Below, piece by piece: positions 2,686 through 16,126 of a stretch of DNA of 53,208 nucleotides (the first letter of the stretch is position 1; every line of letters starts with the position of its first letter). Made by a program: the position numbers and the translations under genes. This DNA is from a virus. Taxonomy: Duplodnaviria > Heunggongvirae > Uroviricota > Caudoviricetes. The notes beneath the pieces were generated by a model, which searched no databases, was not told the origin of the DNA, and worked only from the letters and a program-made list of their open reading frames with translations. The stretch lies in IMG/VR virus record IMGVR_UViG_2671181011_000016; one strand, 5' to 3'.

Positions 2686-2717
2686 AAGAAAACCCCGCGC
2701 GAAGCGGGGTTGTTTTT
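2684..2717. terminator. bidirectional rho-independent terminator
   Basis: A-tract, hairpin CCCCGC-GCGAA-GCGGGG (2693-2709), T-tract; sits between the convergent lipoprotein and J genes. Confidence 0.75.
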
Positions 2718-5700
2718 ATCCTGAGAATGAACCAGAACCGCGCGACACAATGACGGTCGGCGAGTTTATATATGCACCCCTACTATTTTGAGCGGATACC
2801 CTGATTTTAACCGTAACGCCCCTGCTAGTTACCGATGATGAGTGCATAACAAGGCGCTCGTCGCCATTCATAGACAGACTTTTCTCTGAACTGCCGATGA
2901 TTATCGTACAACCACCAAAACCTTTAACGTTTGCCATGACGCAAATATGTCTGCTGTGCGCTGCATTAGATGTGTCATTGTATGTGATTGTTTTTTCCAG
3001 TACTCCATCGGCTAACCTGCTGACGTCGGATCCTGTGTACATGTTCGCAACGTCACCTATAAAGGTTTTAGCCTCAAGTGAACCAGAAAATTTACCGCTA
3101 CTGGCGTGCACTTCACCTCTAACAACAACATTGTTAAATTCAGATGATCCGTCTTTTGTTATCCTCCAACCATTCGAACCAGCGACATAGTTTGATGATT
3201 TTATTTCATTAACAATTTTAGCCATAGTAATGGCTGCATCCGCAATTTTAGCTGTCCCTATTGATGCATTTTTAATAAACGCTTCTTTCACATACATTGC
3301 ACCGTTAGACACATAGAAAGGCGTTGTATATGTGCCGTTTGCTGCAGTCATCAATACGAAGCGGTCAACAAGGAAAATACACTGCGATTGAACGTTAGTA
3401 CCGTTGCCAGTCAGCCCAAGTGACATACCTGTTGCGTACTTCATGCCGTTGTTGTCGGTTGCCAGCTTGATAGAGTACGTCGCATCAACATTACCCTTGA
3501 AGTCGGTTAACGCTTTTGACGTCGTTTCTATTGCTGTTGTGTTCCCGTTAACGGTCACTGTTAGTTGATCGATCTTGCTTGATAGTGCCTCGTCAGCCGT
3601 TGCCATAGCCTGTGACCATTCTGTAATGCTTGAGTTTACAGAATCGAAAGACGCTGAGATCTGGCCGAATTTTTCCGCGCTTGATGCCTCATGCGTAGAA
3701 AGCGCCGTTGATACCTCAGACACCTTCGAGTTTATCGTGCTGGTAAGCGATGAGTTAAGGCTACTTATCGCGTCAGTGCGTGCCTTCGTTTCGTCTGCAA
3801 TTGCCTTGTCAATACGGGTCACGTTGCTTGTAACTTTGCCATCAAGGGTTGAAATTGACGCATTCACGCCGCTGATGGCTTGTGCTCTGGCACTGGCCTC
3901 GTCAGCAATTGCCTGGTCCAGTCTGCTAACTTCGGATTCAGTGTTGCTTTCAAGCGTGTTGATGCTTGCGTTCACACCGCTGATAGCCTCACTTCTTGCG
4001 CTGGTTTCGTCAGCGATTGCCTGGTCTAAGCGCTTAACGCTGGCGGCGGTTTTCTTGTCGAGCGCTGAAATGCTTGCGTTAACGTCGCTTACCGCCTCGC
4101 TGCGTGCGCTGGTTTCGTCAGCGATGGCCTTGTCAAGTCGTGAAACGCTGGCGTTTGTGTTACTTTCGAGCGTTGTTAAATCAGCTTTGACCTCTGTTAT
4201 TGCGTCGCTTCTTGCCTGCGTTTCGTCAGATATTGCCTTATCGAGTCTGCTCACGCTGGCGTCGGTTTTGCTTTCAAGATTGCTTATTGAGGCATTAACG
4301 CCGCTGATTGCCTGCGCACGGGCGCTTGATTCGTCAGCGATTGCTTGATCAAGGCGGTTCACGCTGGCGTCAGTTTTCTTGTCAAGATCAGCGATCGATG
4401 CGTTCACGTTATTAATTGCTTCTGCGCGGGCGCTTGATTCGTCTGCCACTGCGCGTTCCACGCTGGAGATCTGACCCTTAAGGTTGGAATCCATCGTGTT
4501 CATTTCTGCCGTGATGGTTTTCAGCGATTCAGCCGTGGCCCGCTTCTCTTCGGCAATAACGTTGTCGATGCGGTCAATCTGCGCGTTTGTTTCTGATTGC
4601 CCTTTCTTGTACTGTGCAGTGAGCGTAACCCGCGTGTTGGTCTGCGCGAGAGAGTTATTAATCAGCGCCAAAGATGCGTTTTGCAGGCTTGCTTTTGCTT
4701 GCGCCAGTTCGCTGTCGATTCTTTCGCTGGATACCTCTAGCGAGTCAATCCTTACCTCATGTTGCCCAATACCATCGGTGTTTTCACCAACCTTTTTATA
4801 AAGATCTTCCGTCTCTTTTTTCAGCGTGTCAGTGTCAGCTTTTATTTCACCTGTTTCTGTGATTAAGCTGTCAGTGTCAGTCCTCAATTCGTCAGTGATG
4901 TTTGTCAGGTTGTCAGTTGCAGTTTTTAGGTTGTCAGTAGCGTTTTTAAGGTCATTTGTGGCGCTTTCGATAAGGTCGGCACGGTCGCCAAGATCTTTAA
5001 TGTCGCCAATCATGTCCTTGAACTGTTCTGACTCCATGACATCCTTCATCACGTAGTCGCTGATTTCGTCGAAGTTTTCAGTCGGTTTTCCTGATGCCTC
5101 AACGAAGTCTGACACACCGAAAGCGTTACGCGTGCGCACATAAACGTAATATTTATGGCCCGTGTTCATGCCGCCGAAAGTCCATTGGTAGCCGCGCCCG
5201 GTGAATTGCGCCAAAGTTGTTACTTTTGACGGGTCAGTGATCTGATTTTCACCTGAGTAGTAAAACTCATATGCTGTATCAGTTGTCAGGGTTGTTTTGC
5301 TGATCGGATACACTGTTGCCTGGAAAACGCCAGGAACCCAATTAACACCAATCGGGGCGGCTGGCGCACCAATGACCAGATCCACAATACTTTCCGCACC
5401 CTTCATGCCAGTGTCATTACGCCCGCGAATACCAAGCGTGTAGCTGCCAGCGTCGAGGCCATAAAAATCATAGCGGTAGTTCGTGGTTTCATCAGTTGCC
5501 ACTACACGCCCATCGGCGTTATATACGCGAATTTCAAAGGTCAGGCGATGCGTTGTTGTCTGTGTTTCCCACGTTGCGCGACATTGAACAGTTTCAGAAC
5601 CAACATTTAACACCTTCAGGTTTTCGATGTTCGGCACGCGGAAGTGATTAAGCGTGTCGTTGTTTACCTCGAAGATTGCGCCTTCATCAACTACAGCCTG

Positions 5701-7482
5701 TTTGTGTGGATCGTGCTGTGCAGCCTCGATGGTGTACACGCTGTTATTTTCGGTTTCTGCTACGCTAGTGATTCGACACAGAACAGGTTTTGCAGATTCA
5801 GTAGACACGGCGAATACGGTTCCGTTGCGGATCCATGCTGGCGCTTCCGCAAGGGTAATATTGTTTCCGTTAACCCCAGTGATCTGATGTTTTTTGAACT
5901 TGCCGTCGCTGTCCAGTAAGCTGATAGTGTCGCCAGCCGCCACCAGGTCAGAATCAACCTTGTCTACAGTTATCACCTTCCCGTTATTCGCAACGATGCG
6001 ACCGCCCAAACGAGCGCCAGCGCGGTTATTGTCGAGTATCTCGATAATATCCCCTGGCGTGAAGTGAATTGCGTCACGGGCCATTTTAAACGTGAATTTT
6101 GAGGGTTCGCGTTTTGCTGTTTCTATCAGCCATTTGCCAGCGCGGTACGCCTGCCCGCGTGACGTGCAACCGAAAGCCTCCAACGTGGTTTCGTTGTAAC
6201 CATCGCGGGCGATCAGTTCGTCATCTGCCACGTATTCTTTTGATTGTTCCCAACCGTTTTCCGGGTCAGTCCATGACACGATCACGGCGTTGTAAGATTC
6301 TGCGCGGGCGATACTTGAACGAGTAAACGCACCATCAACGACATTAGCATTTGTGATGGTGGCAATTGGATCCTGCGGCGCATCAATCATCACAGTAAGG
6401 CGCTGCCCGTCCCATAACGCGATACCACGGAACATACCTGCAATGTTGTCCAGCAAGTCGCGGGCGCTCATTTGCTCCGTGATGTAAGCGTTAAGCGTCA
6501 TGCGTGGTTCAAGGCCACCGTAACCGTCGTTCACCAACTGGTCGCAGTATTGAGAAAGCGTATACAGTGCGCCATCATCAACGTCGATGTAACCAGCGTG
6601 GCGGGCAAGCCCGAAGCGTTCATTTTTCACCAGATACCGGAAAAGCCATGCAGGGTTATTGGTGTATGCCTTTTTAAAGCCACCAAGCCATAAACCTGAG
6701 TACGTGCGCGTTTCCGGGTCGTAGTTATCAGGCACGTCAACAATCAGGCCGCGCATGTGATAAGTACGTGTCGGCGTGTCAGTATACTGATCGTGGTCAA
6801 TTACCGCGCCTGCTACAGCGGTGTGAGGATAAGATAAATTATCGTCGATTATCTCGCTGTAACTGCTCCACCTGGTGTCGTTGTGAAGTAGATCGCCTGT
6901 GCTGTCTGGCGTTACGCGACGAACGCGAATATCAAACGGTTTTTCATCCGGCGCTTTGATGATGTGCGCTTCGAGGTACTCACCGCTTTGTTTACCCGGG
7001 CCGATGTGAATATCTTTAACCAGTGACCACGTTGTTGAAGATGAAGGCTTAACGTCAACCATCAACGTAACGGATGTATTGTATTGATTGCCCTTATCAT
7101 CTGACTGAACCAGAGAATCAACGCCAAGATTCAGCCTTACGCGGTTAACGTTTGGATCTGAAACGGTCCTGATTATTGGCGTATCGTGAGTCACTTTTGC
7201 GTTGACAATAACGGTTGATTCAATGGCGTTGAAGCCATTGATTGGTGACTGGTCAGCCGTACCATTACGCCACGCCACACTAACGCCGGGGACTGATGTA
7301 CTGCCGTCGCTACCAGTGATAGGCGTGTCATTAAGCATTACGCTGTTTAATGGCGCTTTCTGGTTTACAGGGCCGTATATTGGGCCTTCGCTGAGAATGT
7401 CCAAAACACGATAAAACTGTTTGTGGAACAGGTTATCGTTTAATAGTGTTGGTGTTTTGGCTTTGCCGCCGCCGCTACTCAT
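2716..7482 (-). CDS. J: tail tip attachment / host specificity protein, lambda J-like, with expanded coiled-coil repeat region
   Basis: 1588 aa; N-terminal half aligns by eye with lambda gpJ (ILSEGPI.GPV, PFDIRVRR.TPDST, TLNAYITEQ, EAFGCTSRGQAYRAGKWL); C-terminal part also J-like around the repeat insertion. Confidence 0.85.
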   Translation of the reverse strand: MSSGGGKAKTPTLLNDNLFHKQFYRVLDILSEGPIYGPVNQKAPLNSVMLNDTPITGSDGSTSVPGVSVAWRNGTADQSPINGFNAIESTVIVNAKVTHDTPIIRTVSDPNVNRVRLNLGVDSLVQSDDKGNQYNTSVTLMVDVKPSSSTTWSLVKDIHIGPGKQSGEYLEAHIIKAPDEKPFDIRVRRVTPDSTGDLLHNDTRWSSYSEIIDDNLSYPHTAVAGAVIDHDQYTDTPTRTYHMRGLIVDVPDNYDPETRTYSGLWLGGFKKAYTNNPAWLFRYLVKNERFGLARHAGYIDVDDGALYTLSQYCDQLVNDGYGGLEPRMTLNAYITEQMSARDLLDNIAGMFRGIALWDGQRLTVMIDAPQDPIATITNANVVDGAFTRSSIARAESYNAVIVSWTDPENGWEQSKEYVADDELIARDGYNETTLEAFGCTSRGQAYRAGKWLIETAKREPSKFTFKMARDAIHFTPGDIIEILDNNRAGARLGGRIVANNGKVITVDKVDSDLVAAGDTISLLDSDGKFKKHQITGVNGNNITLAEAPAWIRNGTVFAVSTESAKPVLCRITSVAETENNSVYTIEAAQHDPHKQAVVDEGAIFEVNNDTLNHFRVPNIENLKVLNVGSETVQCRATWETQTTTHRLTFEIRVYNADGRVVATDETTNYRYDFYGLDAGSYTLGIRGRNDTGMKGAESIVDLVIGAPAAPIGVNWVPGVFQATVYPISKTTLTTDTAYEFYYSGENQITDPSKVTTLAQFTGRGYQWTFGGMNTGHKYYVYVRTRNAFGVSDFVEASGKPTENFDEISDYVMKDVMESEQFKDMIGDIKDLGDRADLIESATNDLKNATDNLKTATDNLTNITDELRTDTDSLITETGEIKADTDTLKKETEDLYKKVGENTDGIGQHEVRIDSLEVSSERIDSELAQAKASLQNASLALINNSLAQTNTRVTLTAQYKKGQSETNAQIDRIDNVIAEEKRATAESLKTITAEMNTMDSNLKGQISSVERAVADESSARAEAINNVNASIADLDKKTDASVNRLDQAIADESSARAQAISGVNASISNLESKTDASVSRLDKAISDETQARSDAITEVKADLTTLESNTNASVSRLDKAIADETSARSEAVSDVNASISALDKKTAASVKRLDQAIADETSARSEAISGVNASINTLESNTESEVSRLDQAIADEASARAQAISGVNASISTLDGKVTSNVTRIDKAIADETKARTDAISSLNSSLTSTINSKVSEVSTALSTHEASSAEKFGQISASFDSVNSSITEWSQAMATADEALSSKIDQLTVTVNGNTTAIETTSKALTDFKGNVDATYSIKLATDNNGMKYATGMSLGLTGNGTNVQSQCIFLVDRFVLMTAANGTYTTPFYVSNGAMYVKEAFIKNASIGTAKIADAAITMAKIVNEIKSSNYVAGSNGWRITKDGSSEFNNVVVRGEVHASSGKFSGSLEAKTFIGDVANMYTGSDVSRLADGVLEKTITYNDTSNAAHSRHICVMANVKGFGGCTIIIGSSEKSLSMNGDERLVMHSSSVTSRGVTVKIRVSAQNSRGAYINSPTVIVSRGSGSFSG
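3760..4460 (-). repeat. in-frame tandem repeats (about 7 copies of a ~105-bp / 35-aa unit) inside J
   Basis: Protein shows repeated units SVSRLD(K/Q)AIADE(T/S)SARSEAISGVNASI...; the antisense ORF track shows matching periodic LALVSSAIAWS units; boundaries approximate. Confidence 0.7.
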
Positions 7483-7495
7483 GGTTTTTCTCCTG

Positions 7496-8026
7496 TTAAC
7501 TTACAACGTCAAGGGCGTCTCTGTTGTTATTTGTGTCTATGCCTAACGATCCGACGTTTGAACCTATTTTCATTTCACCCAACAGGATCGGCACTGGTCT
7601 ACCCTGTCCCACCTTGTTTTCGATGCTGGTGTAGGTGTTGTTAGATATGGTGTTATCTTGTGCGCTTTCTGCTGATGTTTTTATCTTCATGTTGCGAGAC
7701 ATAAAGATCGAGAACGCAACGCTAACAACCGAAACACCGATCAAAATCCAGCCTACAACGCCAATCCCTGCAATACCGCCTTCCACCACTGGCGCAACAA
7801 TGACGGTAGTCCCGTCCGGGTATTTACTGTTAACCGCTGCGGGCGCGGTCTTTTCGTCATAATCCTTTCCGGCAATTCGCAAGCGCAACGGGGTGCTTAA
7901 AAACGCCTTTTTGAACTCATGATTCTGCGCAACCAGCAAGCCAAGCCCCTGCGCTGGCGTATCAACGTTTAAACACACTTTGCCGTAATATCTTCGAAGA
8001 TTGCCCGTAAATCTAAACTTGAGCAT
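7496..8026 (-). CDS. I: tail assembly protein, lambda I-like
   Basis: 176 aa; hydrophobic Gly-rich central segment and C-terminal ...VGQGRPVPILLGEMKIGSNV similar to lambda gpI ...VAQGNVLPVLYGEMRVGSRV; position between K and J. Confidence 0.65.
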   Translation of the reverse strand: MLKFRFTGNLRRYYGKVCLNVDTPAQGLGLLVAQNHEFKKAFLSTPLRLRIAGKDYDEKTAPAAVNSKYPDGTTVIVAPVVEGGIAGIGVVGWILIGVSVVSVAFSIFMSRNMKIKTSAESAQDNTISNNTYTSIENKVGQGRPVPILLGEMKIGSNVGSLGIDTNNNRDALDVVS

Positions 8027-8700
8027 TTGTCAGATCTCCATATTGAATTGGTCTGTCGAACATACGCGGGCCGCATTTGCTCGCGGCGGCTTAACAGTCC
8101 GGCATTGTCATGATGCAAAACAGTGTTATCGCCCAGGTAAATCATCGCGTGACATGGGTCAGCGCCTTTAAACGGCTGACGGATAATCACATCACCAGGC
8201 TGAATGCTTTTCGCGTCAACCATGAAAAACCCGTTCAATGGCAGGTTTTTTATGTACAGGTTTTCCCCACGCAGCCACCACCCATCGTGGCGCTCAAAGT
8301 CCGGTAGATCCACGCCGCACAGGTGATAGGCATCACGGAAAAGCGAATAGCAATCTGTTTTCCCGTGCTCAAATTTACGGCCCAACAGGTGCGCCACCGG
8401 GCGGAATTTTCTAACCCTGCCACCGGAACACAAATACCACGGCAGGCCGGAAATAACCTGCTGTTGTCGATCCCGCGCTGACAATACCAATGAATCATTA
8501 GTATGTGAGTGGAAAACGGCTGTTATAACACCCAATTCGTCAGCTTTGATATAATCGTCAGGCGAGATTTTAAAGCTGTTGTGCGGCGTTTCAGACACGT
8601 TAGCGCACGGGTAAAAATAATCGTTATCTATCACCAGCCCGCACACTTCCTCGCGCGGGTGGGCTGCCGCATAGCGAATCATTTTATCTTCAAGTGCCAT
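7969..8700 (-). CDS. K: tail assembly protein, lambda K-like (JAMM/MPN plus NlpC/P60 domains)
   Basis: 243 aa; JAMM-like HSH..D motif (AVFHSHTNDS) and C-terminal Cys-containing NlpC/P60-like part; position between L and I. Confidence 0.7.
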   Translation of the reverse strand: MALEDKMIRYAAAHPREEVCGLVIDNDYFYPCANVSETPHNSFKISPDDYIKADELGVITAVFHSHTNDSLVLSARDRQQQVISGLPWYLCSGGRVRKFRPVAHLLGRKFEHGKTDCYSLFRDAYHLCGVDLPDFERHDGWWLRGENLYIKNLPLNGFFMVDAKSIQPGDVIIRQPFKGADPCHAMIYLGDNTVLHHDNAGLLSRREQMRPAYVRQTNSIWRSDKCSSLDLRAIFEDITAKCV

Positions 8701-8702
8701 AA

Positions 8703-9407
8703 TTAACCGACCTTACTGGACCCAGGGAAGCAGGAAATCGGTAACGGATTCGGGCGCGGGAAACGCAAACGGCAACCGCTCAGGCGGTGGCTGCACTTAT
8801 CCAGCTTCGGATCACTGGTGGGTTCGTCTTTCTCAGTAGCTACAGGGCCGCCACTGTATCCGCAACCGTCGCCGCGATATTGCCATTGGCAAACGTCAGC
8901 GAGGATTGTGCGCCCTGGGATAACCGCCTTGTCAGCATCAATTGGCGTTGATAGTTCATATTGCACCTGGTCGGCTGTTTCTTCGCTCATCGCCTCAACG
9001 ACGTAAAAAGATACCGCCTCGATAGACGGATCTGCATCAGGGTTGCCATTGGGGAAGTTGACAGCGTCCAGGTATTTTACTTCCACCTGGCGGCGCGTAA
9101 CCTTCATTCCTCGCAGGTCGTTGAAATCGTTATTCATCCCGGTGATTAGCCCGCCAATGTTGGCTACAACCATTTGGGGGCGTGAGTAAACGCCTTCGTT
9201 TTTCATTTCGAAGCCAGTAGCCTCGATTGGGTAGCTGTTGTAAGTCACTCCCTTCCAGATAACCGGGCCGTAATAGCCATTCGCGCCTGAATGGAAGCGG
9301 ATAACCTCGCCACCCAGTGGCGTGAGGTCTAATTCAAACAAGTCAATTACCGCGCCGACTCCGGCATCCACGGAATCAATAATCATTTCTGTAGGTATGC
9401 TGCGCAT
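8703..9407 (-). CDS. L: minor tail protein, lambda L-like
   Basis: 234 aa; strong by-eye match to lambda gpL (RFLDAVNF.NGN..ADP, C.W.YRGD.CGYSG, DKCSK.LSGC). Confidence 0.85.
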   Translation of the reverse strand: MRSIPTEMIIDSVDAGVGAVIDLFELDLTPLGGEVIRFHSGANGYYGPVIWKGVTYNSYPIEATGFEMKNEGVYSRPQMVVANIGGLITGMNNDFNDLRGMKVTRRQVEVKYLDAVNFPNGNPDADPSIEAVSFYVVEAMSEETADQVQYELSTPIDADKAVIPGRTILADVCQWQYRGDGCGYSGGPVATEKDEPTSDPKLDKCSHRLSGCRLRFPRPNPLPISCFPGSSKVG

Positions 9408-9460
9408 TTTATCACCTTGTCATTTTGTGATCTCAATCACGCTAAATCATGCCAAAACGG

Positions 9461-9489
9461 TTGATCGCGTTTTTTACAATATGTATATT
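9461..9489 (+). promoter_or_regulatory. sigma70-like promoter of moron cassette A
   Basis: -35 TTGATC, 17-bp spacer, -10 TATATT; about 17 nt upstream of the first + strand gene; an inverted motif variant ATCACAAAATG lies at 9421-9432. Confidence 0.5.
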
Positions 9490-9505
9490 GTACTCAAAAG
9501 GAAGC

Positions 9506-9691
9506 ATGGTTAACAAAATGGCGCGGAGGTGTGAAATGGATGATAAGGTGTGGAGGTTGGCGGTGTTCCTTGCGGATGGCAGGAAAATGACTGTGGCCCT
9601 GTATAAAGATGAAGGCGAGGCACTTACCGACGCGCTCTTACTCGCTGAAGACGAACGCGTTTTGGGGTACAGGATCGAACCTGTCAAATGA
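9506..9691 (+). CDS. hypothetical protein (moron A1)
   Basis: 61 aa; RBS AAAGGAAG before ATG; start chosen among three in-frame ATGs; no recognisable domain. Confidence 0.5.
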   Translation: MVNKMARRCEMDDKVWRLAVFLADGRKMTVALYKDEGEALTDALLLAEDERVLGYRIEPVK

Positions 9692-9705
9692 GAGGTTAAC
9701 GAAAA

Positions 9706-10056
9706 ATGCAAAAATACTCGTTAGAAGTGTGGACCGATAAATGTGAATGGGAGCGCATGGGCCTGTTTGATACATATGTCGAAGCTCGTGATGAAGGTCG
9801 CGAATTGCTACGCTGTTGGTCTAACGCTCGTGATTTTGATATTACTCCGGTCCAAGTACCTGACAAGGTGGAAGAGATGAACCCGAAAGATATTAACTTT
9901 AACGTCAATGTTGAATTTGCAGGCTCTATGGATCAGGCTTGCCCTGGTGAAATCCACGCAAAAGGCTTCCCGGCTGACGATCCTGAGGCAAAACGCGAAT
10001 ACGAAAAAGCGGCGAAAGACTTCTGCATTGATAACCTGGGCGCGTTCGATAAATAA
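9706..10056 (+). CDS. hypothetical acidic protein (moron A2)
   Basis: 116 aa; RBS GAGAGG; rich in Asp/Glu; no recognisable domain. Confidence 0.6.
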   Translation: MQKYSLEVWTDKCEWERMGLFDTYVEARDEGRELLRCWSNARDFDITPVQVPDKVEEMNPKDINFNVNVEFAGSMDQACPGEIHAKGFPADDPEAKREYEKAAKDFCIDNLGAFDK

Positions 10057-10065
10057 GGCGGCAAC

Positions 10066-10314
10066 ATGGGGCGGCGCAATCACGGCGATTATGTGTACAC
10101 GTTGAAACAGGCCGCCCGCCTCGTCGGTTATCATGAGCACGAATTTATTGATTTGCTGATTGAGCGCGGGATACTGTACCAGGTATGTTTAACGCTGTAC
10201 CCGAAAGCAAAATACCTACAGGAAAAGTTATTCATCATCATGACGGATGAAAACCAGGTTAATCATTCATTCGTCACTGATAATGGCGTTAATTATCTGC
10301 GTGATAACTTATAG
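10066..10314 (+). CDS. hypothetical small protein with possible HTH (moron A3)
   Basis: 82 aa; RBS AAGGCGG; segment LKQAARLVGYHEHEFIDLLIERGIL looks helix-turn-helix-like. Confidence 0.5.
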   Translation: MGRRNHGDYVYTLKQAARLVGYHEHEFIDLLIERGILYQVCLTLYPKAKYLQEKLFIIMTDENQVNHSFVTDNGVNYLRDNL

Positions 10315-10322
10315 GACTGTAT

Positions 10323-10526
10323 ATGTTAAAGTACGACGGTCAAAAAATGGTTAGGTTTACGGGTTTTGCTAAAGGTAACAATAGAGAATTAACAGAGTAT
10401 TACAGTTTAAATATTGGTGACGTTTACCGCGTGGAAGAATGTCTGCATTCAATTAATTCTTTAATAATTATAAATAAAGAAAATCAAGGGGTGCTTGTTA
10501 CATTTAACGAAGTGGAGTTACCTTAA
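10323..10526 (+). CDS. hypothetical protein (moron A4)
   Basis: 67 aa; tightly packed after A3; AT-rich codons. Confidence 0.45.
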   Translation: MLKYDGQKMVRFTGFAKGNNRELTEYYSLNIGDVYRVEECLHSINSLIIINKENQGVLVTFNEVELP

Positions 10527-10616
10527 TCAATAAAGCGACGAAGTGATTGGAAATGTTTTGGTAGTGGTTGGCGCGATTGCCATCGTTTATGCCTTTCTGA
10601 GCTAATGGAGTGGATC

Positions 10617-10754
10617 ATGAAAATCGAAGTTTTAGCGCTAATCGCAATGGGCTTGATAGTATTTGGCGTGCACGCTGCGGATTGGGACTGGAGCGCAATA
10701 GCTGAGAATATGGCGCACGCTCACCCGATTGGATTAGTGCACATGAATTTTTAA
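10617..10754 (+). CDS. small hydrophobic protein (moron A5)
   Basis: 45 aa; N-terminal hydrophobic stretch IEVLALIAMGLIVFGVHA (signal/TM-like); RBS GGAGTGG. Confidence 0.45.
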   Translation: MKIEVLALIAMGLIVFGVHAADWDWSAIAENMAHAHPIGLVHMNF

Positions 10755-10795
10755 CACAAACCCCGCTTCGGCGGGGTGTTATAGGTAGGTGAGAT

Positions 10796-10972
10796 ATGAA
10801 AGAGGGTGTGACTTATCAGCATGTGTATACATTTGAAATTTACCGCATATGTGATGGTTATGTTGAAGAGTATAAAATCTTCCCCCGTGGATACTGGAAG
10901 AGAGTTAAGATTTCTGTAAGGTTATTAAAGAAAATGTTTAAAAAAGGATTAATTCAAGAAATTGATTTTTAG
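10796..10972 (+). CDS. hypothetical basic protein (moron A6)
   Basis: 58 aa; RBS AGGTGAG 6 nt upstream of ATG. Confidence 0.5.
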   Translation: MKEGVTYQHVYTFEIYRICDGYVEEYKIFPRGYWKRVKISVRLLKKMFKKGLIQEIDF

Positions 10973-10980
10973 TAAACAAT

Positions 10981-11020
10981 AAAAAAAAGGGGGGGGTACC
11001 CCCTTATTGTTTTATTTGTC
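10981..11020. terminator. rho-independent terminator ending moron cassette A
   Basis: A8 run, G-run / TAC / C-run hairpin, then TTATTGTTTTATTT. Confidence 0.65.
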
Positions 11021-11098
11021 GTGACAACTTTCTATTTCATAGATGATCGTCATTCCTACCGCGATAATAAATACCATTACTAAGCCATCAACCAGCAT
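11012..11098 (-). CDS. micro-ORF encoding a 28-aa hydrophobic peptide
   Basis: MLVDGLVMVFIIAVGMTIIYEIESCHDK; ATG 2 nt after the stop of the upstream gene (TAATATG); single predicted TM helix. Confidence 0.35.
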   Translation of the reverse strand: MLVDGLVMVFIIAVGMTIIYEIESCHDK

Positions 11099-11099
11099 A

Positions 11100-11285
11100 T
11101 TAAACACCCTCAATCAAGAATAAATATTCCTTCCCTTCGTAAGATCTGCACCCCACGTACCCGTCGCCGTAGTCATGCAGATACCAGGTATCCCCTTTAT
11201 CACTCACCACTGTGAGATTATCGATCTGGTAGTCTTCGAATAGCGTAAATGATTCATCGCCAGCTTTAACGCACATCCCGTACAT
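11100..11285 (-). CDS. hypothetical protein coupled downstream of M
   Basis: 61 aa; strong RBS AAAGGGGG; start directly after the M stop. Confidence 0.5.
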   Translation of the reverse strand: MYGMCVKAGDESFTLFEDYQIDNLTVVSDKGDTWYLHDYGDGYVGCRSYEGKEYLFLIEGV

Positions 11286-11295
11286 ATTGCCCCCT

Positions 11296-11649
11296 TTAAT
11301 TCATCACTTGCTCAAACGTCGCGGTTAGCGTGAATACAGGGCCGTCCTTCGTCATGCTCCATTTTCGGCAGACAAAAAGCCTTTGCACCCCATCCATCGA
11401 CGGCGACCAGTAAAAAGCCTCGACAGCGCCGCGCGCCCTCAAGAATGCTTCCGCCTGGATCGCTACATTCCCACCATCGCCGCATCCTGCACTACTGCCT
11501 TTAAAAACCAGGGTGTAACTATCAAGCAACGTGTTAATCCCTTTCGCCTGGCGCTGTTCATAACCATCACCAAGTTTAACGACCGACACATTTGGTTCCC
11601 TGGTCACGCTGTAGCTTCTTTGCGGCGTCCATCTGAAAACTTCTGGCAT
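11296..11649 (-). CDS. M: minor tail protein, lambda M-like
   Basis: 117 aa; matches lambda gpM pattern (FRW.P...GDGY.QR...G.N, KWS......ATFEQV.N). Confidence 0.8.
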   Translation of the reverse strand: MPEVFRWTPQRSYSVTREPNVSVVKLGDGYEQRQAKGINTLLDSYTLVFKGSSAGCGDGGNVAIQAEAFLRARGAVEAFYWSPSMDGVQRLFVCRKWSMTKDGPVFTLTATFEQVMN

Positions 11650-11735
11650 GATTCCCCCTATAAGTTACATATTGCATACATCTTTACGCGCTTCTACGCG
11701 AAAAATGAGAAATTCATCACAAGAATTATAACCAG

Positions 11736-11777
11736 TTTACAAAATGGCTTCACATAGGGCGTGACAAGATGTATATA
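11736..11777 (+). promoter_or_regulatory. sigma70-like promoter of moron cassette B with upstream TTTACAAAATGG motif
   Basis: motif 11736-11747, -35 TTCACA (11749-11754), 17-bp spacer, -10 TATATA (11772-11777). Confidence 0.6.
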
Positions 11778-11818
11778 GAAAGCAAGAAGAAAAAGCAGTA
11801 CCGACAAAGGGGGACAAT

Positions 11819-11974
11819 ATGGAACGCTATGTGGTTGTGATGCTGAACAACGCATTCGAACAGGTGGAGGTGGCGATAGTCAAAGGCTTTGATGACGCAT
11901 TCAAATACGGTCAATTCATGATGAACGCGAAGGAAAATGAGTACCGTGATTTCTTCCTGAAAGTGGTCAACTAA
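11819..11974 (+). CDS. hypothetical protein (moron B1)
   Basis: 51 aa; RBS AAAGGGGGA; MERYVVVMLNNAFEQ... Confidence 0.55.
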   Translation: MERYVVVMLNNAFEQVEVAIVKGFDDAFKYGQFMMNAKENEYRDFFLKVVN

Positions 11975-11992
11975 TGGATTGCGGGGTGGGTT

Positions 11993-12247
11993 ATGAAATT
12001 GGTAGCGATTGGTAAAAATCTGAAAGCACAGAAAAACGCACAGGACCGGATCATCAAAAAGGGCAAGGCTTTATTAAATGCTTTCCTGAGAAAAGAGGCC
12101 ACCCCCAAAAAATTACGCGATGGTTACGGTTATAAATTTGATATTAACCCCGATTGGCGGTTATTCAGCGAAGATTTAAAGGCGTGGTTAATTATCGACC
12201 ATCTGGAATATAACAGACACTGTGGGGTTAAAGGGGCGCATAAGTAA
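11993..12247 (+). CDS. hypothetical basic protein (moron B2)
   Basis: 84 aa; RBS GGGGTGGG; Lys-rich N-terminus. Confidence 0.55.
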   Translation: MKLVAIGKNLKAQKNAQDRIIKKGKALLNAFLRKEATPKKLRDGYGYKFDINPDWRLFSEDLKAWLIIDHLEYNRHCGVKGAHK

Positions 12248-12354
12248 GGCGGGCATGAAGGGCGATAAATTCACCCGGCGGGGGAACTGGAATGTTTGAC
12301 AGGTAATTTTGGATAGGGTGTATCGCGCGGAATGGTTGTTTATAAATACGAAAA

Positions 12355-12388
12355 TAGCCCCGGCATTGTACCGGGGTTTGGTTTATTT
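12355..12388. terminator. bidirectional rho-independent terminator (moron B / tape measure gene)
   Basis: hairpin CCCCGG-CATTGTA-CCGGGG followed by TTTGGTTTATTT; overlaps the TMP stop codon. Confidence 0.65.
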
Positions 12389-14731
12389 GCGGCGAGGTTG
12401 CAACATTCCTCCGGGTCGCTGCGATTCCCTTGCCATCATTTTCATCGCGACGCGTTCCATCGTCTGTTCAAGTCTGCGACTGTCTTCGTCGCTAAATCCG
12501 TTTGTGGTCTGTACGGTGATGTTAACAGGCATATTGATGCCGCCGCCGCTGAAGAGATCACGGCCAGGAATTACCCTACCATTCTCGCCAGGAATCATAT
12601 ACTGACGCCCATTGCTCGTCTGGAATAGCTCTGGGATTCCGTGCTCACCTACGCGATACAGGCTGCCACCATTAACAGAACCACCATTATAACGCCCGCC
12701 ACCAAAGATTGACGTTGCCAGCGACATGATCGCAGAAAGCGCCGCAGCACCAGCCGCCGCCCAGCTACCACCAGTTGACGCCGCAGTCGCCGCCGCCGCT
12801 GGGGCCGCCGCCGCTGCAATCTGGCCTTGTGCCGCTACTGCGCCAGCCGTTGTACTTGCCTGGGTAGCCTTGCTTTGCGTTTCCATCATCAATTGATCTG
12901 CTATCCAGTTAGCGGCAATTTCTGACAGTTTGTTGCCAACGGTGTTAAGTATGCTACTTCCCAGGTTGGCGAAAACCTCGCTTAATGATTGAGTGCCGTT
13001 TAGCAGTCCGGTAAGGGCATTACCCATGCCACCCTTCAGGCCGCTGACGCACGCACCAATCAGGCCGTTTGTTTCGCTTTGCGCCTGCCATTGTTCCCAT
13101 TTCAGATCTCTGATCTGTTGTTCATATTCCAATAGCGCCTGTTTCTGTTGCGCCTCTGTAGCGCCCAAGTCTATCAGCATTTGTTTGCGAACGGCCCATT
13201 CATTTTGTGCCTGCTTGATTGGGTCAATTTCTCCCTTAAGCTGGTCCATCGGGCTGACTATGTGATCCCATTTGTCGCGTAGCTCATCAACAGGGATTTG
13301 CGCCAATTCGTCCTTCAGTTCCTTGCCTATCCCTTTCTGCGCGGCCTTGTACTCAAGTAGGGTTATTTTGCCCTGGGCGAATGCAGCTTCAATGGCCTTG
13401 CCGTTCTCTAATGCGTTGCGCATAGCGGCGGCGTCCTTGTTGTACTGGTCGGACACTTTTATGCCTTCATCACCAAGCCGATCAGCTTCAGATTTCTTGT
13501 CCTTTTTGCCCTTTTTCCCTTTTTTAGGCTTACCGACTGGCTGATCGAATCCGGTGATCTTGCCATCGTCAGCCTCATCCTGTTTCTGCATTAACTCATC
13601 ATAGGCGGCGGTCGCGTTTTTAATGTCGTTTGCAAACGTCATGACTTTGCCGACGGTGGGGCCAAATTTTTTCTCGTTGTTGCTGTTTAGCTCTTCCTTG
13701 CGTTTATCGACGATCTCCTTCATCCACTTGTAACCATCCATTAGCGCTTTGATTGGCGTTACCATTTTGATGATTTCTTCCGCCACCTCACCAGCCTTAA
13801 CAGCAACGTCGTCAAACATGTCGATGAACTCGTTACCAGCGGTTTTAAGTGTGTTGAAACAGGTTGCGGCGAATTTTGCGCCTTTACCCAATCCCTCAAC
13901 GCCACTAGTGATTAAGTCTATTGCTGTTACAACGCCGTCAGATATGCCGAAAAGATCATCAAGCTGTTCGACAAGTCCCATAACCTCAACTTTAAGCTCG
14001 TTGAAGGCCATGCCGGATGTGCGCGGCAACTGTGCGAACTTCTCGTTTGTTTCCTGCGTAGCGGCCTGGATCGCGTTAAGCATCCTTTCAGCCGTGATCT
14101 TACCGTCCAGCATTTCAGCGCGGAACTGACCCATAGACAACCCCATTTGGCGGGCCATTTCCTGTATGATTGTTGGTGTGTTGTCACGTATTGAGTTAAA
14201 TTCCTCAGCCTGCAACACGCCAGCATCAATAGCCTGGCGGAACTGAAGCATGGAGTTTGATAGTTGTTCCGCAGACACGCCGCCCAGGTTGCCGAGTTTT
14301 TGCAGCGTGCTAACCAGGTTGAGTACCTGGCCTTCTGTAGCGGATGTGTTTTTTAGCGATATAGCAAGACCTTGCCACAGGGCACCAGTATCCTTAAGGC
14401 TTTGCCCTGTTTCTTTTGATATATCTTTCAGTCTGTTGAAAACACGCTCCGTGGCCTCCGCTTCACCTGTAAGCAGTTTGATTTTTACGCGAAGCATTTT
14501 CGCTTGCTCCGCCATGTCAATAAACTGGCGTACAGCCTCCGCAGCAAGTAGCAAATGGATAACCCTGGATAGCGCTTTGATTGAAGTCTTAAGCGTGTTC
14601 ACCTGGCGGTCAGCGCGTTTTGCGCCACGCTCGATGCTGTCAAAAGCCTGGTCTGCCTGTCGTTGAGCAACGAGAAGTTGACCAGTTTTTGCATCAACTT
14701 CGTAGTAAATTGTACCTAAACTAGTTGCCAT
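12383..14731 (-). CDS. tail tape measure protein
   Basis: 782 aa, largely alpha-helical and Ala/Gln/Lys-rich with a Gly-rich C-terminal part; sits at the lambda H position upstream of M. Confidence 0.85.
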   Translation of the reverse strand: MATSLGTIYYEVDAKTGQLLVAQRQADQAFDSIERGAKRADRQVNTLKTSIKALSRVIHLLLAAEAVRQFIDMAEQAKMLRVKIKLLTGEAEATERVFNRLKDISKETGQSLKDTGALWQGLAISLKNTSATEGQVLNLVSTLQKLGNLGGVSAEQLSNSMLQFRQAIDAGVLQAEEFNSIRDNTPTIIQEMARQMGLSMGQFRAEMLDGKITAERMLNAIQAATQETNEKFAQLPRTSGMAFNELKVEVMGLVEQLDDLFGISDGVVTAIDLITSGVEGLGKGAKFAATCFNTLKTAGNEFIDMFDDVAVKAGEVAEEIIKMVTPIKALMDGYKWMKEIVDKRKEELNSNNEKKFGPTVGKVMTFANDIKNATAAYDELMQKQDEADDGKITGFDQPVGKPKKGKKGKKDKKSEADRLGDEGIKVSDQYNKDAAAMRNALENGKAIEAAFAQGKITLLEYKAAQKGIGKELKDELAQIPVDELRDKWDHIVSPMDQLKGEIDPIKQAQNEWAVRKQMLIDLGATEAQQKQALLEYEQQIRDLKWEQWQAQSETNGLIGACVSGLKGGMGNALTGLLNGTQSLSEVFANLGSSILNTVGNKLSEIAANWIADQLMMETQSKATQASTTAGAVAAQGQIAAAAAPAAAATAASTGGSWAAAGAAALSAIMSLATSIFGGGRYNGGSVNGGSLYRVGEHGIPELFQTSNGRQYMIPGENGRVIPGRDLFSGGGINMPVNITVQTTNGFSDEDSRRLEQTMERVAMKMMARESQRPGGMLQPRRK

Positions 14732-14768
14732 GATTTAACCTCATGAAAGTGTGATCTACGTCTCTATT

Positions 14769-14811
14769 TTATACAAAATGGCTTCACTTCAACGAGTACA
14801 TTTTGTATAAA
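14769..14811 (+). promoter_or_regulatory. sigma70-like promoter of moron cassette C with upstream TTATACAAAATGG motif
   Basis: motif 14769-14781, -35 TTCACT, 17-bp spacer, -10 TATAAA (14806-14811); inverted motif copy CATTTTGTATAA overlaps the -10. Confidence 0.6.
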
Positions 14812-14887
14812 GAAGATAAAGGAAAGGGATAGAACGAAGGGACTTAAAAGGCCGGATTAACCGGAGGAAGCAAAAGAGGATAAGAAA

Positions 14888-14977
14888 ATGAAAAACGTAA
14901 ACTACCGCCCCAACGAACATGAGCGTTATGCCGACTTTATCGAAGAAATGCTGAAAGCACTTAAAAACAAAAACTAA
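14888..14977 (+). CDS. micro-ORF (29 aa) leading moron cassette C
   Basis: MKNVNYRPNEHERYADFIEEMLKALKNKN; RBS AAGAGGA. Confidence 0.4.
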   Translation: MKNVNYRPNEHERYADFIEEMLKALKNKN

Positions 14978-14989
14978 GCGGGGTGAGTT

Positions 14990-15406
14990 ATGAAACGGTT
15001 AATTAGAGCGGCAATGATGGCGGTAATGGTTGGTTTGGCATTCAACGCAAATGCAAACGATGTAATAAATATAAACTGCGATGAAGTAGCAAATAACGTT
15101 GCCGAATACCATAAAATTTTCAAGAAGGAACCCGCAGCCATCAAGGTTTTTTATAAAGCAATTGACAAGCATTTCGAAGGTAAAGCAGTTTATGCAAGAT
15201 GGTTTAATTATGGGCTTGTGAAGGAGGCTGCTGTAGGTGTCGTATTCGAAGGTAACAATGAAATAAGAAACAGAATAGCCAACGAGTGCAACGCTGATAA
15301 AGCCGCATTTGCTGAAAGAATATTTAACGAAGGCGGCGCGGGTGTAAAAAATCATGCTATCGTTGATTTAGGTAACGGCAGAATTGAAATTGTAAGGATT
15401 AGATAA
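14990..15406 (+). CDS. Sec-exported small protein (moron C2)
   Basis: 138 aa; signal peptide MKRLIRAAMMAVMVGLAFNANA with AxA cleavage motif; two Cys in the mature part; RBS GGGGTGAG. Confidence 0.65.
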   Translation: MKRLIRAAMMAVMVGLAFNANANDVININCDEVANNVAEYHKIFKKEPAAIKVFYKAIDKHFEGKAVYARWFNYGLVKEAAVGVVFEGNNEIRNRIANECNADKAAFAERIFNEGGAGVKNHAIVDLGNGRIEIVRIR

Positions 15407-15440
15407 TGAGCACTATCAAAAAGCATCATCGACATATAAC

Positions 15441-15465
15441 GCCCGGTTCTACCGGGCTTTTTCTT
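15441..15465 (+). terminator. rho-independent terminator after moron cassette C
   Basis: hairpin GCCCGG-TTCTA-CCGGGC followed by TTTTTCT; overlaps the 3' end of the convergent minus-strand gene. Confidence 0.65.
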
Positions 15466-16126
15466 GCTCGCGTTTTTTCATCAATTCCAGCACCCTTTTA
15501 GCGGCCTCCATTTGCTCATCATAATCACGTTTATTTATCTGAACGTTTGGCTTACGTTTCTCGTTTCTTTCGTCTGGTGGCGTTTTAGCGCGTACAGCGG
15601 CCCTATATCCGGTCATTGTCATGCCCCACGCTTCAGACTCAGACAATCCCAGGTGAGCAACAGCAGAATAAACATACTCAAGGATGTCGAATGTGGGCTT
15701 GTACTCGCCATCCTGGTTTTCGCCCGTGTCTTCTTCTGGACCGTCACCAATTAAACCGTGGAACATGCAGTGTTGCGCCAGTGTGATAACGTCGCTGGTG
15801 GGCATTAATCCAGGCTTTAGCCTCAACTTACCCGAAGGAGTAAAGCTACATTCGCCCAATAACGGGCCTATTTCGCATTCTGAGCAACATTTCAGTATAT
15901 GGATGGACGTTTGCACCAGCTCACCATAACAACGCGCCAGAATTCGATTGCGGAGGTCTGTATCCATTGGCATACGCCGTGGGTATCTGCCACCGTGAAC
16001 CGTTGCGAAATATTCGACCAGTTCCCTGTCACTGCCGATCTTAGCCATTGCAGCAAAGCATGGATTGAACTCGTAACGTCTTCCATCAACCACAACCGCA
16101 AATTGTCCTGTTCGAACATGGATCAT
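15449..16126 (-). CDS. putative tail assembly chaperone (lambda G/GT position)
   Basis: 225 aa from the ATG with RBS AGGGTGA (track ORF extends to 16156); lies between major tail and tape measure genes; acidic middle, basic C-terminus; assignment positional. Confidence 0.45.
   Translation of the reverse strand: MIHVRTGQFAVVVDGRRYEFNPCFAAMAKIGSDRELVEYFATVHGGRYPRRMPMDTDLRNRILARCYGELVQTSIHILKCCSECEIGPLLGECSFTPSGKLRLKPGLMPTSDVITLAQHCMFHGLIGDGPEEDTGENQDGEYKPTFDILEYVYSAVAHLGLSESEAWGMTMTGYRAAVRAKTPPDERNEKRKPNVQINKRDYDEQMEAAKRVLELMKKREQEKAR

Follow-up and report, generated by a model that had tools for sequence, protein, structure and literature searches.

The present analysis concerns the interval between the tail genes L and M of a tailed virus (Caudoviricetes), IMG/VR record IMGVR_UViG_2671181011_000016; its 53,208 nucleotides are called the window below, and positions are counted from its first letter. 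The late tail genes are encoded on the - strand (J at 2716-7482, I at 7496-8026, K at 7969-8700, L at 8703-9407, M at 11296-11649 and the tape-measure gene H at 12383-14731), and six open reading frames (ORFs), g1 to g6, lie on the + strand in the L-M interval. An earlier reading of the letters, called here the original prediction, had taken them for a moron cassette inserted as a block, with its own sigma70-like promoter and a strong terminator. All six ORFs were found, at 9536-10972, together with a seventh which had not been listed, a mini-ORF of 20 aa at 10543-10605; a promoter and a terminator of its own, as expected of a moron, are also present, at the level of the sequence only. On balance we find it probable, with the roles proposed further on included, that the interval is an accessory island, antisense to the late genes and conserved within its lineage, the mEpimmI group of phages, and not a recent insertion of six genes. 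Its features are the following.

9426-9441: CRP-type palindrome TGTGATCTCAATCACG, TGTGA-N6-TCACG, 19 nt upstream of the -35 element
9461-9489, + strand: candidate sigma70 promoter TTGATC-17-TATATT, with a 9/12 match, the sole promoter-like site on the + strand of the island
9536-9691, + strand: g1, 51 aa, acidic (isoelectric point, pI, 4.7), with a GGAGG ribosome-binding site 6 nt upstream
9706-10056, + strand: g2, 116 aa, pI 4.47, with an N-domain (1-57), two linker types and a C-domain (72-116)
10066-10314, + strand: g3, 82 aa, ANT/KilAC domain with a helix-turn-helix (HTH), core gene
10323-10526, + strand: g4, 67 aa, accessory
10543-10605, + strand: mini-ORF MIGNVLVVVGAIAIVYAFLS, 20 aa, all hydrophobic, GTG start (23 aa with ATG in relatives)
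10617-10754, + strand: g5, 45 aa, with an N-terminal signal-peptide-like or transmembrane segment (...VFGVHA/ADWDW...)
10760-10777: hairpin ACCCCGCTTCGGCGGGGT, the island terminator in relatives without g6, here parted from its T-tract by the g6 unit
10782-11010, + strand: g6 unit, a 229-bp insertion with a ribosome-binding site, g6 and its own terminator
10796-10972, + strand: g6, 58 aa, pI 9.5
10987-11005: bidirectional intrinsic terminator, a 7-bp G/C hairpin (G run, TAC, C run) with U-tracts on both strands
11012-11113, - strand: putative gene, a 33-aa hydrophobic ORF (maximum 19-residue hydropathy 2.51)
11100-11285, - strand: 61-aa acidic gene between M and the island, phrog_3249, unknown function

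The window belongs, as a phage or a prophage, to the mEpimmI (mEp021-like) group and not to lambda: mEp010, mEp554, mEp044, mEp013, mEp515, mEp021 and MagusPhagus match it with 90-93% DNA identity, only over 9300-10315. The 2025 description of this group treats it as a lineage at family level, separate from lambda despite its lambda-like tail genes, and reports that its members match lambdoid phages in frequency among E. coli from human faeces (PMC11893012). Of 5,426 complete E. coli genomes, 34 contain related prophages. The original prediction had argued from lambda, which has no genes between L and M; this comparison was misleading, because the phage belongs to a distinct lineage, in which g1-g3 are fixed at that place. 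Direct orthologues of g1-g3 are indeed encoded at the same position in mEp021 (gp71-gp74) and mEp010 (gp108-gp111; records MH706966 and PP180001), with 88-99% protein identity, whereas the g4 and g6 of the window are absent from all seven phage records which match the island region, mEp021 and mEp010 included.

An IMG/VR scan with g2 gave 44 loci; with three annotated records and the window added, 46 L-M regions were available for comparison, and these are the relatives referred to below. Each of g1, g2 and g3 was counted in 46/46 regions, although in one of them (L036) an unrelated 52-aa ORF stands at the place of g1, and the same core was present in seven further contigs found through other proteins (L051 to L057). 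The 61-aa late-strand gene, which has no counterpart in lambda at this position, is equally present in 46/46. The late strand of the interval is therefore occupied as well, by this conserved gene and by the 33-aa ORF (4/46). The other ORFs are accessory: g5 was found in 33/46 regions, g4 in 10/46 and g6 in 2/46, a different gene of 77-81 aa stands between g2 and g3 in five loci, and the combination of g4, g5 and g6 was met in none of the relatives examined. The interval measures 1198-1890 bp, the longest version being that of the window.

Selection was estimated by the pairwise Nei-Gojobori method, as the ratio of nonsynonymous to synonymous rates (dN/dS) or, for g4 and g5, of the corresponding proportions (pN/pS). 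The dN/dS values are 0.22 for g1, 0.21 for the whole of g2 and 0.12 for g3, to be compared with 0.04 for L, 0.065 for M and 0.09 for the 61-aa late-strand gene; pN/pS is 0.19 for g4 and 0.195 for g5. The island genes are real, and g1-g3 are under purifying selection.

Base composition divides the island at the same place. The GC content of 9408-11020 is 0.422, compared with 0.465 for the genome; g1-g3 have the genome value (0.469), and 10315-11010 has only 0.381, which is the 0.3rd percentile of windows of the same size. As single segments, g4 has 0.319, g5 0.464 and the g6 unit 0.332. The cassette had been described as richer in AT than its flanks, which is accurate for the distal part and not for g1-g3. 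A moron is defined as DNA which is extra relative to related phages and deviant in GC content (PMC3594210). As g1-g3 are fixed and have the average GC content of the genome, they are not "more DNA" than related phages carry, so that the idea of an inserted moron cassette holds for the distal g4-g6 and fails for the core. The original prediction was to fall if the same genes proved to be conserved structural or assembly factors in related phages. Half of this was found, because g1-g3 are conserved across related phages; no structural sign accompanies their conservation.

The non-coding region upstream of g1 varies 4-6 times less than synonymous sites do: in the 128-bp spacer between L and g1 the mean pairwise distance is 0.117, versus a dS of 0.51 in g1 and 0.72 in L. 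Within this spacer, the -35 TTGAT and the -10 TATATT are invariant in the sequences of the 46 relatives. The scan which proposed the promoter gave 5 sites in the region versus 6.3 expected from shuffles, so that it was not, overall, above chance. At the other end of the island, the terminator hairpin at 10987-11005 has folding energies of -16.2 and -15.1 kcal/mol. No LexA box (CTG-N10-CAG) was found in the L-g1 spacer, no copy of the ACTTGCA repeats which adjoin the repressor gene occurs in the island promoter region, an indirect hint that the repressed prophage might express the island, and an Rfam scan of 9000-15600 gave no match. Two further candidates were rejected: the palindrome ACAATATGTATATTGT over the -10 hexamer as an operator, one of its arms being broken in about half of the relatives, and the conserved ATG in AACAAAATGG as the start of g1, which is out of frame in L018-type relatives.

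A promoter-like element, TTGTTA-18-TACAAT at 9487-9516 on the - strand, faces L and overlaps the island promoter face to face in the conserved spacer. It could cause promoter interference, or a transcription of L-K-I-J independent of the late operon.

The palindrome TGTGATCTCAATCACG fits the TGTGA-N6-TCACA consensus at 9/10 core positions; a core match of this order is about equal to that of the lac site. Its half-sites are invariant in the 46 relatives while its central bases vary. The predicted centre is at about -62.5 from a start predicted at 9496 (-63.5 in about half of the relatives, which have one extra base), and a class I CRP promoter is expected to have it near -61.5 (or -71.5). The pattern TGTGA-N6-TCAC has four sites in the window versus 0.44 expected, an enrichment of about 9-fold, and two of the other CRP-type sites stand at the corresponding place in mEp021, where the half-sites are kept and the central bases differ. 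Sites of the form TGTGAT-N4-ATCAC stand at 9426, 30911, 36903 and 40497, and at 7521 and 11098 in L050, all apparently between ORFs; one CRP-type palindrome overlaps TERM_4, an annotated terminator of mEp021.

The only core gene with a named domain is g3. It matches Pfam PF03374 with an E-value of 1.1e-5 over profile positions 23-105 of 108, and six of its seven homologue clusters have a precomputed match to the same family. All homologues are 82 aa long and come from E. coli; among the 46 relatives g3 is present throughout, with 88-99% identity. Its AlphaFold 2 model (AF2; predicted local distance difference test, pLDDT, of 73) has a strand, an HTH and helices. A Foldseek search with it gave nothing significant, the top non-significant neighbours being HTH domains of the MerR type, which is a mere hint. 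Over almost its entire length, g3 matches the same ANT/KilAC domain as AriS of Listeria phage phi10403S. The Ant/AriS antirepressors have two domains, AntA/B, Bro-N or pRha followed by KilAC; g3 is KilAC only. It thus differs from AriS, P1 Ant1/2 and phi11 Gp07 by the lack of an N-terminal domain, by its marginal score and by being encoded in the tail region instead of the early one. The only activity which experiments have assigned to an isolated KilAC domain is the inhibition, probably via RecA, of the SOS response; it was shown for Listeria AriS and two homologues, in each case with the C-terminal domain, and the phage-specific regulation exerted by AriS maps to its N-terminal domain, not to KilAC (PMC9043618). 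For phi11 Gp07, the KilA-C part is described as inhibiting growth in E. coli (PMC5944126).

The second gene, g2, combines two domains with opposite histories. The C-domain is nearly invariant (SMDQxCPGEIHAKGFPADDPEAKREYEKAAKDFCIDNLGAFDK; dN/dS 0.07). The N-domain is hypervariable (p-distance 0.395; dN/dS 0.23, dS 1.18), and it reassorts freely, as r is at most 0.26 with every neighbour, compared with 0.46-0.74 for the tail genes mutually. Its AF2 model is a beta-beta-alpha-beta fold with a pLDDT above 90. The family of g2 was found in E. coli only, in 55 clusters with identities down to 44%. An exhaustive search of 1.84 billion representatives with a hidden Markov model, the g2 profile, returned only this family, fragments, stand-alone C-domains and low-complexity noise, and no fold relatives of g2 were found outside the family.

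The product of g1 matches phrog_29559, of unknown function. An hhalign comparison between g1 and the N-domain of g2 gave an E-value of 1.2e-4 over 45 columns, versus 0.12-0.76 for unrelated controls, and one relative replaces g1 and g2 with a single 172-aa gene made of two domains of the g1/g2 N-type and a C-domain. Hence g1 and the N-domain of g2 are apparently paralogues, each a domain of the beta-beta-alpha-beta type. RefSeq labels an orthologue of g1 "transporter" (WP_096038014.1, L003 4237-4392); we rejected this label, which has no support in Pfam, NCBIfam or PHROGs for a soluble acidic protein of 51 aa.

Beyond the core, g4 matches phrog_14327 (E-value 1e-6), of unknown function, and tblastn against 50,697 phage records gave no match to it. 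The g6 unit is a clean indel relative to L021 and L029, and is common to the window and L032; the insertion separates the hairpin ACCCCGCTTCGGCGGGGT from the T-tract which trails this hairpin in loci without g6. No promoter-like site was found before g6, though it brings its own terminator. Among 5.8 billion proteins g6 forms one cluster, on 11 contigs, of which the six listed all have it in the L-M slot; it was not found in the 5,426 complete E. coli genomes or, by tblastn, in phage records. As a group, the distal genes g4, g5 and g6 have the marks of a moron, being additional to what related phages carry and, in g4 and the g6 unit, deviant in GC content. Taken by itself, the first property is found in g4 and g6, in part in g5, and not in g1-g3.

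The mini-ORF and the g5 type of the window go together in mEpimmI loci, both being present in 21 and only one of them in 3; many relatives, such as mEp010, have a g5 without the mini-ORF. In three phage contigs of 120-140 kb (L046, L048 and L049), the linker and C-domain of g2 form a stand-alone gene of 60-66 aa, and a g5-like gene (45-47 aa) comes next; L048 and one other of these contigs have a hydrophobic mini-ORF of 23 aa in between. The arrangement of C-domain gene, mini-ORF and g5-like gene stands behind a promoter-like site, TTGACA-17-TAAGAT, in contigs of 135-140 kb, and the large contigs match no phage or plasmid record. As the three elements recur together, the C-domain of g2 probably works with the mini-ORF and g5 peptides.

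The products had been called unrecognisable: an acidic 116-aa protein, an HTH-like protein and a small hydrophobic one. These descriptions were accurate for g2, g3 and g5, respectively, and g3 alone has now received a family name. Profile and structure searches, which had been proposed as a check, gave no defence, structural or solved-structure relative for any product. With Pfam, PHROGs, NCBIfam and PADLOC, the only named matches among ten island proteins are KilAC (g3) and ParE_like (in a neighbouring island); the PHROG families matched are all of unknown function, and none of the ten proteins matches a PADLOC-DB v2 defence model at E <= 0.1. Sequence searches of the PDB with g3 and with the g2 profile gave nothing below an E-value of 0.3. 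No homology to known superinfection exclusion (Sie) or toxin families was found among the L-M products by profile searches, and no sequence relation to Lom or Bor was detected. Because no product matches any PADLOC model, the defence or exclusion role suggested for the cassette remains a guess, applicable at best to the variable tail of the island and to the hypervariable N-domain of g2.

The architecture of the island is well supported; its function is not. The order seen in the sequence is a conserved non-coding region with the promoter candidate and the palindrome, then g1-g2-g3, then a slot of variable cargo, and finally a bidirectional terminator which abuts the late genes. Host RNA polymerase would transcribe the island independently of late transcription and convergently to it, and late transcripts would have to read through two hairpins before reaching L. 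The core would encode small cytoplasmic proteins acting on the host or in conflicts between phages, and not parts of the virion: g3 may be a KilAC-type regulator, g2 a specificity protein with an invariant C-domain and a reassorting N-terminal recognition domain, and g1 its paralogue. The C-domain of g2, the mini-ORF and g5 would form a small mobile unit which also circulates alone in unrelated large phages. The distal genes would be true morons, and their small membrane peptides the best candidates for superinfection exclusion of the kind exerted by HK97 gp15.

Several points weigh against this reading. The Pfam score of g3 is barely above the cut-off (26.2 bits for a threshold of 25.3), and SOS damping is known only from Firmicute proteins at least 30% identical to AriS (PMC9043618). 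The promoter matches the consensus at only 9/12 positions and is predicted from sequence alone; the distance from the palindrome to the -35 element varies by 1 bp among relatives, and the candidate site TGTGATCTCAATCACG may bind a phage factor instead of CRP. The relationship between g1 and the N-domain of g2 has an hhalign probability of only about 50%. As 13/46 relatives keep g2 without g5, g2 does not need g5. Finally, a conserved position between tail genes would also fit a role in assembly.

The roles can be assigned in other ways. It is conceivable, and in our opinion doubtful, that g2, the mini-ORF and g5 make up a membrane-associated exclusion or toxin-like module, with g3 as its regulator and g1 as a duplicated accessory domain. 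The recurrence of the triplet behind its own promoter-like site in unrelated large contigs, the association of the mini-ORF with g5, the signal-peptide-like N-terminus of g5 and the DNA-binding HTH domains among the structural neighbours of g3, not significant as they are, would all fit such a module; the relatives with g2 and no g5, the many with g5 and no mini-ORF, and the absence of homology to known exclusion or toxin families do not.

Just as tentatively, one may imagine by analogy that g1-g3 are an unrecognised module of host manipulation or conflict, in which a catabolite-responsive promoter would drive a g3 which damps RecA and the SOS response, a g2 of swappable specificity, and a g2 C-domain acting with membrane peptides.

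The reading of the original prediction, according to which the whole 1.6-kb block of six genes is an acquired moron cassette expressed in the prophage for lysogenic conversion, exclusion or defence, now seems unlikely. It accounts for the opposite strand, the promoter-like site and the terminator, for the AT-rich and patchy distal half with its small membrane peptides, and for the hypervariability of the N-domain of g2, which would be expected of a gene of conflict; it also has a precedent in HK97 gp15, a tail-operon moron which excludes phages (PMC3594210). With HK97 gene 15 and the lom and bor morons of lambda, the island indeed shares the predicted status of an independent unit in the tail operon and the small membrane peptides. 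Deviant GC content and patchy spread liken g4 and g6 to lambdoid morons, and g6 is a unit of a gene plus its terminator. The island as a whole differs from them, being antisense and multigenic, with three promoter-proximal genes that are fixed in the lineage and matched in composition. That fixation at genome-average GC, and the absence of any PADLOC match and of any Pfam or NCBIfam defence domain, argue against acquisition as a block.

Another improbable reading takes the island for an induction module, in which g3 would be the antirepressor of a non-cleavable CI-like repressor and g1 and g2 would modulate it. The name of the Pfam family and the RefSeq and GenBank annotations say antirepressor, and such a role is attractive because the repressor of the group is non-cleavable: it has no Ala-Gly cleavage site, and the lysogens are not UV-inducible (PMC11893012). 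The conservation of g3 is also what could be expected of the partner of a single, highly conserved repressor. However, g3 has no AntA/B, Bro-N or pRha domain, where the phage-specific regulation of AriS sits, and the promoter region has neither the LexA box nor the ACTTGCA repeats.

It is highly improbable that g1-g3, despite their opposite strand, serve in tail assembly or as accessory proteins of the virion: the strict position between tail genes in all relatives and the inclusion of a KilAC-like protein in the manually defined core set of the group (PMC11893012) would favour it, but a sigma70-type promoter and convergence with the late operon are atypical of morphogenetic genes, KilAC is regulatory wherever it was studied (PMC9043618), g2 is hypervariable next to conserved tail proteins, and gp70 to gp74 are not flagged as structural in the mEp021 record, which so labels the proteins detected by mass spectrometry (this concerns the annotation of the record only). 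The supplementary files of the article which describes the group contain no information on gp70 to gp74 (PMC11893012).

The lineage-conserved island between L and M is probably one of at least two, and probably three, islands in the tail operon, the others lying between M and H and upstream of H.

11650-12382: M-H island, with a 51-aa gene at 11819-11974, then a ParE_like gene at 11993-12247 (PF24732, E-value 3.7e-11)
12356-12378: bidirectional hairpin of the M-H island
14732-15448, + strand: third unit, with an ORF of about 29 aa at about 14889-14978 and a 138-aa signal-peptide protein at 14990-15406, without Pfam match

In the M-H island, the 51-aa gene was found in 44/46 relatives and the ParE-like gene in 46/46, followed by patchy cargo which includes HNH and zinc-ribbon genes; the interval measures 684-2078 bp, the version of the window being among the shortest. 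Because a conserved 51-aa gene precedes a gene with a ParE_like toxin domain, the two are probably a toxin-antitoxin pair. This island resembles the type II ParE-like toxin-antitoxin systems of prophages, whereas the L-M island has no resemblance to any toxin or antitoxin. The 51-aa gene was also tried as a third paralogue of g1 and the N-domain of g2 and rejected, as its hhalign E-values (0.25-0.29) are like those of the negative controls. As for the unit upstream of H, a tblastn matrix showed it in no more than about one relative in three. The tail operon of this family is thus interrupted repeatedly by antisense units, in each of which a fixed part next to the promoter precedes a distal slot into which genes are swapped, this slot ending at a bidirectional terminator.

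The 9-mer TACAAAATG has 12 exact copies in the window, mostly between ORFs, at 11738, 14772, 14799, 22364, 30897, 36862, 40480, 43888, 44567, 45410, 49212 and 52160. At the M-H and H-upstream islands it lies directly 5' of promoter-like elements of the form TTCAC(A/T)-17-TATA(T/A)A, where it resembles a proximal UP-element, and several copies adjoin CRP-type palindromes. In mEp021, an HNH endonuclease gene, gp78 (L002 1618-2184), lies between I and J; it is missing from the window and from mEp010, so that this place of the tail operon, too, takes variable insertions.

Moron and accessory islands in tail operons are known; what is unusual here is a conserved, uncharacterised core of three genes. 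A KilAC-like protein had been listed among the core proteins of the group, and the island genes had otherwise been left without analysis (PMC11893012). Retained family-wide, the fixed genes, with their stand-alone KilAC and their protein of hypervariable domain, are better targets for the study of function than sporadic cargo. If g1-g3 were indeed a module of host manipulation, the damping of the SOS response by g3 would keep co-resident SOS-inducible prophages quiet, and the N-domain of g2 would be the determinant of specificity against rival phages or host defences. An action of g3 on SOS or RecA would carry the AriS paradigm over to Gram-negative hosts and would bear on the reason why mEpimmI lysogens are not UV-inducible. 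More generally, these islands, not analysed before, give a map of where the mEpimmI family keeps functions which are non-essential and yet selected.

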